Origin: Candidatus Saccharimonadota bacterium
GTDB lineage: Bacteria > Patescibacteriota > Gracilibacteria > BD1-5 > UBA2023
Direction of reading: 5' to 3'
NCBI GenBank assembly: GCA_042852035.1
Contig: BAAFHK010000002.1
Location: 1 to 32,000, forward strand
DNA length: 32,000 bases
The first letter of the stretch is position 1. Every line of letters begins with the position of its first letter. The notes below the pieces were generated by a model that did no database searches, was not told the DNA's origin, and saw only the letters and a program-made list of their open reading frames with translations. Below, one piece after another: positions 1-32,000 of the stretch. Both the position numbers and the translations under genes were made by a program.

Positions 1-101
1 CGGATTCATGAAAAATAGATGCTTTGATTCATGCGAAAAAATCAAATGTTCCATCAAGTGCACCAGATCAATTTTTTATTGTTACAGCACTTAGTGAATA
101 A
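1..101 (+). CDS. 3' end of an unidentified CDS (partial, enters from the left edge)
   Basis: The frame is open from nt 3 to TAA at 99-101 if TGA at 9-11 is read as Gly. A hairpin terminator follows. Only 33 codons, with no recognisable motif. Confidence 0.3.
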
Positions 102-108
102 AATTACT

Positions 109-142
109 AAAAATACTTCCAACAAAATTGGAAGTATTTTTT
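109..142. terminator. Hairpin terminator (bidirectional shape)
   Basis: aaaatacttccaa / ttggaagtatttt form a perfect 13-bp stem with a 6-nt loop. The hairpin has an A-run on the left and a T-run on the right. Confidence 0.55.
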
Positions 143-225
143 GGTTTATGTAAAGTTGAGCGCACCTTATAGGATTCTATCCTTTTTTGATGAGAAAATC
201 ACTCTAATTTCTAGAAATTTATATT

Positions 226-257
226 AAAAATTTCCTTAAGTACTTAAGGAAATTTTT
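226..257 (-). terminator. Palindromic hairpin downstream of tRNA-Ser(UGA)
   Basis: Perfect 32-nt palindrome aaaaatttccttaagtacttaaggaaattttt, immediately 3' of the minus-strand tRNA. Confidence 0.55.
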
Positions 258-266
258 GTATTACAA

Positions 267-354
267 TGGCGGAGAGACAGGGATTCGAACCCTGGAAGGC
301 TTTCGCCTTGCCGGTTTTCAAGACCGGTGCATTCAACCGCTCTGCCATCTCTCC
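267..354 (-). tRNA. tRNA-Ser (anticodon UGA), encoded CCA
   Basis: The reverse complement reads GGAGAGA..CCGGT-CTTGAAA-ACCGG..long variable arm..CAGGG-TTCGAAT-CCCTG-TCTCTCC-G-CCA. It is 88 nt with a class II cloverleaf. Confidence 0.9.
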
Positions 355-425
355 AGATGTTTTTTTGAGCGCGAGAGGAGTATATATTGGGAATGCCTTT
401 TGTCAAAAAATTTTTCGAGAAATCC

Positions 426-1124
426 TTATTTTTCTCCGAAAAAATGCTCTGAAATTTCTTTCCTTCGATCTTCTGGATGAAACTTGAGCATACCATCAGA
501 AATGATAACTCCCCACGGATTTCCGAGCTTTGCATTTGTTTTTCGCGTTCGTGCTTCGAAGATAAAACAGCACAAAGCATTGAGGCTATCCAAAACACGG
601 TTTTCTTTTTGATTTCATAACACTTGTTTTAGGTCGGATATATTTTTCTGATACTGGGGAATATCCAGTTGTACCCATGGATTCGATGCCAGGAAACGAT
701 CATAGGTATAGTTTTTTGAATACATGGGTCGGAGGTAATATATCCAATAATAGAGGTAGATATCATTTTGTATGGCAATTTTTTCGAGATTCATTGCCTC
801 TGTTGTAAGGAAAAATGAGAGACAAAAATTCCCAGGAATATCTTTTCCCGAGCGACGAACTCAGAGTAGAGTGAGGATTATTGTCATAAGAATTCGTACG
901 AGCCAGAGTCGATTTTTTCCAGTGATCACAAAAAGATCAATATCAGAATCTGGATGGGTCGCGAGCATCGAGAGGGAATTCACTAGAGCAATCATTTCGA
1001 TCCCAGGAATCCAAGTGAGACGACGAATATATTTCTGAGCCCTTTCGAAGAGAATTTGTTCGTGCGCATTCGGATCATCTTTCCCACCGACGTATTCCTG
1101 AAAGGATTGTTTCCATGCTTTCAT
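426..1124 (-). CDS. Minimal (Pol-beta-type) nucleotidyltransferase domain protein
   Basis: Track ORF 861-1124 continues in frame through TGA at 861-863 and 615-617 to TAA at 426-428. The motif [20 protein letters not shown] matches the GS..(n)..DxD nucleotidyltransferase signature. Its start overlaps the ruvA stop by 1 nt. Confidence 0.6.
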
Positions 1125-1696
1125 TAGCTTGCGAGTTTACGGATAGCTTCGATCGTGCGTTTGTCGATCGGGAGTTCGGATGAGATTCATTGAATTACTT
1201 CTTCTACACGCGTTTTATCATATCCCATTTGTACCAGAGAGCTTATCAGGAGGGAATCGCTGTTATTTTTCATCGGTGTTTGAGGTGTTTTCTTGAAGTC
1301 GATAGAACCCTTGAGATCGACGATGATTTTTTGTGCCGTTTTTTTCCCGATTCCAGGAACAGAAGATATAACTCCATCGTCTTCGAACTGGATCGCACGA
1401 ACGATCGCATCGTGTCCCAGACCGAGGATATTGAGAGCGGTTTTCCCACCGACGCCACTCACTTTCAGGAGACTTCGGAAGAGCTCACGTTCTTCGGTAT
1501 TGATGAAACCAAAGAGAGTTTCCCCCATTTCGGTCATGTGATGATGGATAGAAATTTCGATCATTTGTCCAGAAATAGCACTCGAAAGAAGTCCGGGAGA
1601 AGAGAAAATCTCGAGTCCAAGTCCAGTTCCTTCAATGAGACAAACGAGGATGGGATGTTGCACGGACAGTACCGTACCGCGAATATAGGCAAACAT
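1124..1696 (-). CDS. ruvA: Holliday junction branch-migration complex subunit RuvA
   Basis: N-terminal OB-fold region, then two HhH motifs (LLKVSGVGGKTALNIL and SVPGIGKKTAQKII). The ORF reads through TGA at 1187-1189 to TAA at 1124-1126, which supplies domain III. Confidence 0.85.
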
Positions 1697-1751
1697 AGTG
1701 AAAAATTGATTGCATTATATAAAAACCCAGTAGAATCGCAACCATACTTTT

Positions 1752-30008: not shown

Positions 30009-30569
30009 ATGAAAAAACTCCTTATTACCGCATTTGTGGCACTTACAGTTTCCACTTCTCTCGTTTATGCTGGTGCTGGTGGTTGGTCTGATAGTGATGC
30101 TCCAATTTATGATTTTTCAACGGGCGCTGTTGTCAAAACAGGTTATGCCACTTCACCAATGTCAGATAAGGCTTCACGGATGGGTGCTATTAGCTTCAAA
30201 GTCCCTTGAATAGATAATCTTGGTTATGATATCAGTCATATCTATTTTGTTGATACAAAAGGAAATAAAGTATATCTCAATACCTTCAAAGCAAAAGAAA
30301 ATGGTGTATTTCATACCGTGTATGCTATTACGCCACGAACAGAGGCAGTAATACAACAAAATATGGGGCTACTATTTATCTCACGAACGAATTGTAGTAT
30401 AAACGACCCAATAAAGAAGGCGAAACTCTGCGACAGAATATCTAAAACAGAGTTCAATACTATTGGTCGTAAATATAAGTCTATCGGTGTGAAACTTCCA
30501 GATGGATCAACAAAAGAAATGAAAATCACTTTTTCAAATCAAGAAACCATTCAAGATTGGTATCAATAG
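30009..30569 (+). CDS. Secreted hypothetical protein (186 aa)
   Basis: Signal peptide MKKLLITAFVALTVSTSLVYA. Track ORFs 30009 and 30318 fuse across TGA 30207-30209. TAG stop. Confidence 0.6.
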
Positions 30570-30655
30570 TTTTTCTTTTTGATTTTGAAAAAACAAGATT
30601 TTATCTATTGTATAGAAAATTTGCGCAACATAGTATGATTTTCTATAATATTTTT

Positions 30656-30725
30656 AGCCAGCCAGCCAGCCAGCCAGCCAGCCAGCCAGCCAGCCAGCCA
30701 GCCAGCCAGCCAGCCAGCCAAGCCA
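30656..30725. repeat. Tetranucleotide microsatellite (AGCC)16 plus one offset extra unit
   Basis: There are 16 perfect AGCC units at 30656-30719, then a single A and one more AGCC. The repeat is intergenic, between the stop at 30569 and the promoter at 30776. Confidence 0.95.
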
Positions 30726-30775
30726 TTCTTGATACTTCGTAATCAAAATAAGAACACATAATCCCATCTGATATA

Positions 30776-30803
30776 TTGACAAAATAATTATATAGACTAT
30801 AAT
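30776..30803 (+). promoter_or_regulatory. Consensus sigma70-like promoter for the gene starting at 30838
   Basis: TTGACA (30776-30781), a 16-nt spacer, then TATAAT (30798-30803), 35 nt upstream of ATG 30838. Confidence 0.55.
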
Positions 30804-30837
30804 GGAACGGTAATTTTTATTTTCTTACATATTCGCT

Positions 30838-31596
30838 ATGAACTTTCAAGAACAACTTCGTTATGATAAACTTCAACTTATGAAGTCAAGACGACAAAAA
30901 AGAGCAACTTCAACTGTTCAGGCAACAACAGAAACAACAAAAGTTGCCGTTGAATGACCAAAAACCATAGAAATCGCAGGCAAGAAAATCCTTGCGATGC
31001 CACTTGAAACTATGGCACTCACCCCAGAACAACAAAAGAAGTTTGAAGAAGCAGGTGGTCTTATGAACCCTGCGCCAAAAATAGCAACAGCAGATAAAAA
31101 TCAAGACAAGATGATGTATTGGTCTGAAAGTTTTGAAACACTTCAAGCAGAAATCGACGGAACGCTTTACAAGGGTTTTGACCTCTTCAAAAAAGTTTAT
31201 GAAGCATTCCCAGATATTCGTTCTATGACAAAAGGCGAAGCCACAGAAGCAGGACTTTACCCAACTATTCATTACCGCAACTTTGCCGCTCGCAAATGGA
31301 TGGCAGAGATGAACGGCGGACACCTTGCTACTTTGGATAAGGATTATAATGGCGAACTCCGTGATATCTTTAACGCAGCAGAAGGAAAAACAAACCTTGA
31401 AAAACTCGCTGCTATGGGTCAAGCACCGCTTGGCTGACGTTATGCTAATGATGCGAAGGTGTATTACTTGGGGGATTGGGCGGGATTGGGTTCTGGCTCG
31501 CTCAATGGTGATGGTGATGTCCGCGTGTTGGGCGCGCACCGTGATAAGGTCGGGCGCTGACAATTACTGATATTGGCAGGGGAGCGCTGTCAGTAG
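30838..31596 (+). CDS. Candidate DGR target protein with a GC-rich C-terminal putative variable region
   Basis: ATG 30838 joins track ORF 30997 through TGA 30955, continues through TGA 31435 and 31558, and ends at TAG 31594-31596. The C-terminal segment FAARKWMAEMNGGHLATLDKDYNGELRDIF ... AKVYYLGDWAGLGSGSLNGDGDVRVLGAHR resembles the ligand-binding end of C-type-lectin/DUF1566-type DGR targets. The local GC content is far above the surrounding element. Confidence 0.55.
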
Positions 31597-31697
31597 TGTC
31601 GTTGTATTGGATAAATAGTCTCTTTGACACTTTGTCTCTTTTGGTTTCAGAAAATCGTATATACAGTTAATTTTGAAGTCTATATAACAGATGGGAT

Positions 31698-31719
31698 ATC
31701 CGCTTTATGCGGATTTTTC
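31698..31719 (+). terminator. Rho-independent terminator / hairpin
   Basis: atccgc / gcggat stem with loop tttat, followed by a T-run. Confidence 0.55.
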
Positions 31720-31744
31720 TGTATTTCTTCATTTCAAAAACCGT

Positions 31745-32000
31745 ATGGCTACTTATGACCTTCTTCCTGTATATAAGACAACCTATGATTTTCTATTACA
31801 GACTTTTCAATTTTCAAAAACATTTACCCGTGAATACAAATACACTATCTGACAAGAACTCAAAAATGAAACCATACGACTCATACTGGCAATATATCGT
31901 GCCAATGGATCACAAGCAAAAAGATATGAACTCCTTGATGATGCTCGGACAACATTGGAAACCATACGACTTCTTTTGCGTCTGACAAAAGACCTAAAAC
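31745..32000 (+). CDS. Avd-like four-helix-bundle protein (DGR accessory variability determinant / S23-IVS family), partial at the window end
   Basis: MATYDLLPVYKTTYDFLLQTFQFSKTFTREYKYTI-G-QELKNETIRLILAIYRANGSQAKRYELLDDARTTLETIRLLLRLTKDLK fits the remembered pattern lP.y.k..d....i......fP...ry.lG..l......l...i..An........L..a...l..lr.llrla.dlk. The Gly in the lG position is encoded by TGA at 31850-31852. Confidence 0.6.

Follow-up and report, generated by a model that had tools for sequence, protein, structure and literature searches.

Whether UGA ends translation or is read as an amino acid, and as which one, is the question raised by positions 1 to 32,000 of contig BAAFHK010000002.1 (32 kb, 39% GC), the whole of which was analysed and is here called the window. 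The window very probably belongs to a chromosome of Gracilibacteria (BD1-5) that uses NCBI translation table 25, in which UGA encodes glycine and only UAA and UAG terminate. That UGA means glycine in Gracilibacteria has been established since 2013–2014 by comparative genomics and proteomics. In a BD1-5 bacterium, 40 peptides with glycine at UGA were found against one with tryptophan at the highest stringency (PMC4032931). The trait is lineage-wide, and tRNA-Gly(UCA) and the status of release factor 2 (RF2) have been described in reassigned and non-reassigned members; an extra reassignment of CGA/CGG to tryptophan was predicted for Absconditabacteria (PMC8629427). Prophages of Gracilibacteria rich in in-frame TGA have also been reported (PMC10746230).

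In-frame TGA codons and gene ends

Long open reading frames (ORFs) delimited by TAA or TAG were translated with TGA masked as X and then scanned with Pfam. The gene set modelled in the window comprised 32 genes, 31 of them complete, and contained 80 in-frame TGA codons, carried by 22 of the 32 genes, but no in-frame TAA or TAG. Across 28 gene segments (8,856 codons) 78 in-frame TGA, no TAA and no TAG were counted, and the remaining two TGA came from five further genes. Off frame, the same 28 segments contained TGA, TAA and TAG at rates of 3.4%, 1.8% and 1.0%, respectively. Pfam domain matches continued across the TGAs. Under table 11, a 608-amino-acid (aa) integrase was split into 14 pieces and a 1395-aa protein into 12.

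All 31 complete genes ended in TAA (23) or TAG (8), as the preliminary description of this DNA had stated for the genes it recognised. This observation was not circular for ten genes free of TGA, since the first stop of any kind in them was TAA or TAG. These ten, all correctly called under table 11, encoded UPF0102, GalU, a lipoprotein, a tetratricopeptide repeat (TPR) protein, SufU, a His-rich membrane protein, RNase J, SecG and two pilin-like proteins. The earlier statement that the code changes almost every gene boundary was therefore too strong.

Relatives were found by scanning genome contigs with the TGA-free GalU protein of the window. The best GalU loci were metagenome-assembled genomes (MAGs) named Candidatus Gracilibacteria or Patescibacteria, 84–68% identical to the window, and their loci likewise collapsed under table 11. 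Gene order was common to the window and loci L001–L003 over ~20 kb. By nearest neighbours and gene order, rather than by a phylogeny, the window is placed in Gracilibacteria. A Gracilibacteria/Absconditabacteria-like lineage, as first suggested, was right and could be narrowed to Gracilibacteria by the names of the nearest genomes and by the reading of CGA and CGG as arginine.

Amino acid encoded by UGA

The following genes were used to compare individual TGA positions:

1752-2741, plus strand: EarP (EF-P arginine rhamnosyltransferase), 329 aa; TAA end; in-frame TGA at 1800, 1809, 2343 and 2673
8002-8874, minus strand: GalU-type UTP-glucose-1-phosphate uridylyltransferase (Pfam); no TGA; TAA end
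9663-10819, minus strand: QueA (Pfam Queuosine_synth, 249 bits, E 8.8e-74); in-frame TGA at 10688, 10272 and 9690
12365-13585, plus strand: SufS cysteine desulfurase, 406 aa; TAA end; in-frame TGA at 13163 and 13250 (codons 267 and 296)
23589-25415, minus strand: large serine integrase, 608 aa (Pfam Resolvase, Recombinase and Zn_ribbon_recom); TAG end; 13 in-frame TGAs
31745-31999, plus strand: bAvd-like gene, cut by the window end (Pfam bAvd, E 3.6e-9); in-frame TGA at 31850

Window genes were aligned codon by codon with the syntenic loci L001–L006, the relatives being translated with TGA masked. In 65 comparisons, a TGA of the window faced GGN 28 times, TGA seven times and TGG never; in the reverse direction, 225 comparisons of the relatives' TGA with the window gave glycine 106 times and tryptophan never. 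Over a glycine background of 6%, the binomial p of the enrichment was 4e-19 for the window TGA and 2e-68 for the relatives' TGA. The share of positions aligned to glycine or TGA was 54% for window TGA, 68% for GGN and 3% for other codons, and glycine columns were 18-fold enriched at TGA positions. In the genes of the low-GC island described below, 71 comparisons of TGA with relatives gave TGA 30 times, GGN 15 times and TGG never.

A likelihood decoding, built on substitution frequencies taken from the window-versus-relatives alignments themselves, gave glycine as the best amino acid both for core genes, 39 log-likelihood (lnL) units above asparagine, and separately for island genes, 15.6 lnL units above serine.

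Homologs from organisms with the standard code were compared at single sites. Seven TGA positions named in the preliminary description (1800-1802, 1809-1811, 10272-10274, 9690-9692, 13163-13165, 13250-13252 and 31850-31852) were all TGA and in frame in the genes to which they had been ascribed. The EarP family match scored 58.6 bits (E 7.6e-16), and its TGAs at 1800 and 1809, in DNF-X-DI-X, faced GGN in all three of L001–L003 and matched both G of DNYGDIG in solved EarP structures, in a weak local alignment. The QueA TGAs at 10272 and 9690, in the conserved C-terminal part, faced G in three of three solved QueA structures and GGN in the relatives. For the Avd TGA at 31850, the column was glycine in 136 of 149 homologs from a search of a representative library; among solved Avd structures there was no match usable for this column. 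GalU of the window carried GGN where L001, L002, L003 and L005 carried TGA, and those TGAs of the sister genomes sat on columns invariantly glycine in 75 standard-code bacteria. The integrase TGAs aligned to TGA or GGN in loci L082 and L085, and G stood at columns 162 and 252 in four of four distant standard-code recombinases.

The claim that TGA often falls on a glycine conserved across the family thus stood for EarP, QueA, Avd and one of the two recombinase sites named earlier, but failed for the other recombinase site (FEII-G) and for both SufS sites. The FEII-G site was variable: TP901-1 has D there, L082 has E and L085 has GGC. Aligning the fused EarP, QueA and SufS translations, as had been proposed, accordingly gave glycine at the EarP and QueA TGAs and other residues at those of SufS in solved structures.

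Several observations weigh against glycine or leave it less directly supported. The two SufS TGAs did not lie on family-wide glycines, E and I/L being found there in solved SufS structures; in L001 and L003 they faced GGC/GGT and GGA/TGA, so that glycine or TGA was seen only within close relatives. About 46% of window TGA columns aligned to non-glycine residues in relatives, against 32% for GGN glycines, a share that is expected at 45–52% identity, though it is somewhat above that of GGN. A search of the window and of 13 related loci detected no tRNA with anticodon UCA; the tRNAs of the window were tRNA-Ser(UGA), two tRNA-Met and tRNA-Ser(GCU). The decoding machinery of this genome was therefore unobserved. 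The absence of prfB from the 32-kb window was uninformative either way, since the whole genome is needed. From knowledge of the lineage, and not from the window, a tRNA-Gly with anticodon UCA would be dedicated to reading UGA, and RF2 would be absent.

The tryptophan reading of UGA (table 4), known from Mycoplasmatales and from several insect endosymbionts, draws on public protein collections, which hold these genes with W at TGA positions: P0001, 96% identical to the integrase, has W at all 13 sites, and the Avd relatives P0016 and P0018 likewise carry W. However, in each of P0002 and P0006, the DNA of which was checked, 13 of 16 W residues were TGA codons, indicating that those proteins had been translated with table 4. 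The W residues of the database are a gene-calling artefact, and the table-4 relatives of the integrase and Avd genes comprised P0001, P0002, P0006, P0016 and P0018. Window TGA was never opposite TGG, whether in the core (65 comparisons) or in the island (71), TGA did not occur opposite any of the 123 TGG positions of the window that were aligned, and tryptophan was worse than glycine by 151 (core) and 86 (island) lnL units. Standard-code homologs had glycine, not tryptophan, at the QueA, EarP, Avd and GalU columns. Tryptophan is thus extremely improbable. UGA is a sense codon also in the table 4 organisms (Mycoplasmatales, Entomoplasmatales and insect endosymbionts), but it means glycine here; with table 4, gene callers also obtain full-length ORFs, but the public versions of these proteins made in that way are wrong at every UGA.

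Hardly any credence can be given to the view that TGA truly terminates translation here, the genes being pseudogenes of a degrading genome or artefacts of its assembly. The frameshift in QueA (see below) does mean that at least one gene in the window is disrupted or wrongly sequenced, but degradation does not account for 80 in-frame TGA beside no TAA or TAG when both of the latter are common off frame, for TGA positions kept between genomes (seven sites in common in the core and 30 in the island) or for the enrichment of TGA at glycine columns. Essential motifs also lie 3' of TGAs, such as the HHC loop of SufS and the C-terminal FSFGD of QueA. That UGA might have a second meaning besides glycine, terminating certain genes or encoding selenocysteine in places, is very improbable too. 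Nothing positive was found for it, and the last TGA (7519) of the 1395-aa protein falls in an unaligned low-complexity tail, where homology does not speak against termination; against the dual reading stand the first stops of the ten TGA-free genes and the alignments to relatives or solved structures, which pass the last TGA in EarP, QueA, SufS and a solute-binding-like (SBP) protein. No TGA column faced cysteine in the core and island alignments (no search for selenocysteine insertion sequence elements was made), and 80 sites over 22 unrelated genes are ill-suited to selenoproteins.

All codons were screened against the relatives. CGA, the most used arginine codon (150 uses), faced arginine in 164 of 294 comparisons; CGG (27 uses) also aligned to arginine, and TGG was read as tryptophan. 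Only AGG deviated, favouring lysine over arginine by 1.1 lnL units, which was not significant. A reassignment of CGA/CGG to tryptophan of the Absconditabacteria type was thus rejected, both codons being read as arginine. With CGA, CGG and TGG standard, the code is plain code 25 as in Gracilibacteria, and not code 4 or the CGA/CGG variant.

The glycine reading agrees with the genomes for which table 25 (Candidate Division SR1 and Gracilibacteria code) was defined. BD1-5/Gracilibacteria genomes have the same UGA at glycine positions (PMC4032931, PMC8629427, PMC6851277), terminate only with UAA or UAG, have a low-to-moderate GC content (39% here) and, in the nearest MAGs, share gene order with the window. 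Nothing qualitative differs, although core genes of the window use UGA less than those of the nearest relatives. Absconditabacteria (SR1) are alike in reading UGA as glycine, but the window lacks the extra reassignment of the SR1 type. UGA as glycine held on every test run: codon alignments, likelihood decoding and standard-code references.

UGA usage and the low-GC island

TGA made up ~7% of glycine codons in core (host) genes but 34% in the island, a fivefold difference. For the same orthologs, it made up 23–29% in L001, L002, L003 and L005; expressed per 1000 codons, UGA was used about five times in the core genes of the window against 16–21 times in the nearest relatives, i.e. three- to fourfold less. 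L001–L003 had a GC content similar to that of the window, and L004 and L006 were also low users of UGA. Use of UGA for glycine thus seems to change quickly within the lineage. Use of UGA is thus sparing in the chromosomal genes and far greater in the ~7-kb low-GC island at tRNA-Ser(GCU).

Besides the integrase, the island region comprised:

23554-23646, plus strand: tRNA-Ser(GCU) (ARAGORN), its 3' part shared with the end of the integrase ORF
25424-30569, mixed strands: island cargo, eight small orphan ORFs; GC ~30%; 30 in-frame TGAs; TAA or TAG ends
28359-28997, within the cargo: DnaJ-domain membrane protein

Between 23.6 and 30.6 kb the GC content was ~30%, against 40–44% around it, and table 11 broke every gene. 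The share of the island covered by ORFs of at least 150 aa was 0.08 under table 11 and 0.97 with TGA open. The integrase matched PHROG 95 (integrase, E 2e-47); a PHROG search of the cargo gave no function beyond the integrase and a DnaJ domain. Homologs of the island ORFs in L082 and L085 kept TGA at the same columns.

Because the end of the integrase ORF overlaps the 3' part of tRNA-Ser(GCU), this tRNA is the likely attachment site of the island. It was not reported by the Rfam tRNA model at the gathering score, the other three tRNAs scoring 60–71 bits, and its cloverleaf appeared normal by eye, with a long variable arm. A search of the window for another copy of the tRNA-Ser 3' end found none, either with up to three mismatches or as an exact repeat of at least 13 nt, and the far end of the island is therefore undefined within the window. 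In L085 (563-7541), a homologous island lay beside the same tRNA-Ser and RNase J, and the tRNA end recurred there as a 20-nt direct repeat that bounded a 6.9-kb element. Homologous islands in L082 (about 3400-11832) and L083 lay at tRNA-Gln, so that the target was tRNA-Ser in the window and L085 and tRNA-Gln in L082 and L083.

The code-25 prophages and integrated elements known from Gracilibacteria and Absconditabacteria (PMC10746230) resemble the island in having an integrase and a TGA density far above that of the chromosome. Unlike them, the island showed no phage structural genes in the 7 kb seen, and small integrative island may be a better description of it than prophage. Possibly, though we would not call it probable, the ~7-kb island belongs to a family of small integrative elements, as yet undescribed, that occurs in code-25 bacteria alone and is driven by a large serine integrase that overlaps the target tRNA with its own 3' end.

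Other genes and the meaning of the code

The other genes modelled up to the island were as follows:

426-1121, minus strand: conserved protein of unknown function, 231 aa; TAA end; in-frame TGA at 861 and 615
1124-1696, minus strand: RuvA, 190 aa (Pfam RuvA_N and HHH_5); TAA end; in-frame TGA at 1187
3385-7572, plus strand: lineage-specific protein, ~1395 aa; TAA end; 11 in-frame TGAs, at 3802, 4708, 5218, 6250, 6358, 6628, 6634, 6805, 7369, 7378 and 7519
7573-7941, minus strand: UPF0102 (Pfam); no TGA; TAA end
8881-9582, minus strand: lipoprotein (Pfam); no TGA; TAA end
10935-12353, plus strand: TPR-repeat lipoprotein, 472 aa (Pfam TPR families); no TGA; TAA end
13592-13996, plus strand: SufU/NifU-like protein (Pfam NifU_N); no TGA; TAG end
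13993-14967, minus strand: His-rich membrane protein; no TGA; TAG end
14993-17140, minus strand: SBP_bac_5 solute-binding-like protein, 715 aa (Pfam SBP_bac_5); TAA end; in-frame TGA at 17018, 16949, 15653 and 15053
17168-17374, minus strand: SecG (Pfam SecG)
17499-17894, 17900-18256, 18266-18622 and 18636-19061, plus strand: four tandem T4SS-pilin-like genes (Pfam T4SS_pilin, PF18895); in-frame TGA at 17996, 18002 and 18281
19073-19753, plus strand: Zn-peptidase-like protein (Pfam); in-frame TGA at 19115
19948-21189, plus strand: RNase J-like protein (Pfam); in-frame TGA at 20701 and 20728
21310-23178, plus strand: RNase J (Pfam); no TGA

The 231-aa protein was 46–56% identical to ORFs in L001–L003, and its TGA at 861 aligned to TGA, TGA and GGA. 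RuvA was 57% identical to an ORF of L003. About 1350 residues of the 1395-aa protein, including a His-rich segment, aligned to single ORFs in L001–L003 (29–41% identity), no Pfam family being matched; its TGAs at 6250, 6358, 6634 and 6805 mostly faced GGN or TGA in relatives. The Aminotran_5 match of SufS (380 bits, E 1.7e-113, residues 16–397) spanned both TGAs, and the HHC motif of its catalytic loop lay 3' of both. The SufU/NifU-like and His-rich membrane proteins shared ~60–66% identity with ORFs of L001 and L003. In the SBP_bac_5 protein, TGA 17018 aligned to GGA and TGA, and TGA 15053 to GGT and AAT. The pilin-like genes were small, with the T4SS-pilin domain C-terminal, and were partly conserved in L001, L003 and L085. 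The RNase J protein had an exact match in a Logan contig and was 88% identical in L085.

QueA had been described as a gene interrupted by TGA. Its TGAs were in frame, but it was also split by a 1-nt frameshift near 10448-10459, between ...GTKIHF and SGYLEVV... and outside any long homopolymer; in L001 and L003 it was a single ORF. The frameshift may reflect a true inactivation of the gene or a mistake in the assembly.

A homolog of EarP was kept in L001–L003, with no efp gene adjoining. EarP is best known from beta- and gammaproteobacteria, and its presence in a Candidate Phyla Radiation (CPR) lineage may merit a look.

Beyond the island, the window ended with the bAvd-like gene and one other:

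30838-31596, plus strand: unknown protein, 252 aa; in-frame TGA at 30955, 31435 and 31558

A perfect (AGCC) tetranucleotide tract of ~17 units (30656-30722) lay in the intergenic region ~115 nt upstream of this gene and is a candidate tract for slipped-strand phase variation. The bAvd match (37.5 bits) was under the 40-bit cut-off, but the gene is truncated by the window end. Together with its 252-aa neighbour, it suggests a diversity-generating retroelement, the template repeat and reverse transcriptase of which would lie beyond position 32000. No variable repeat was identified, and a scan of viral contigs with Avd found no relatives.

The use of UGA for glycine here was already known and adds no new biology. 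Table 25 is nevertheless a precondition for any other reading of the window, a value that is practical, not conceptual. Table 11 breaks 22 of its 32 genes, and the mobile island almost vanishes; table 4 turns every UGA into a false tryptophan, and since public collections already hold such forms, the artefact could mislead a decoding of UGA based on close database homologs alone. Only a host that shares this code could express the island. If the island does belong to a family confined to code-25 bacteria, the gap in UGA use between island and core would be the mark of its having arrived recently from a lineage with heavy UGA use, and the element would be unreadable outside code-25 hosts.

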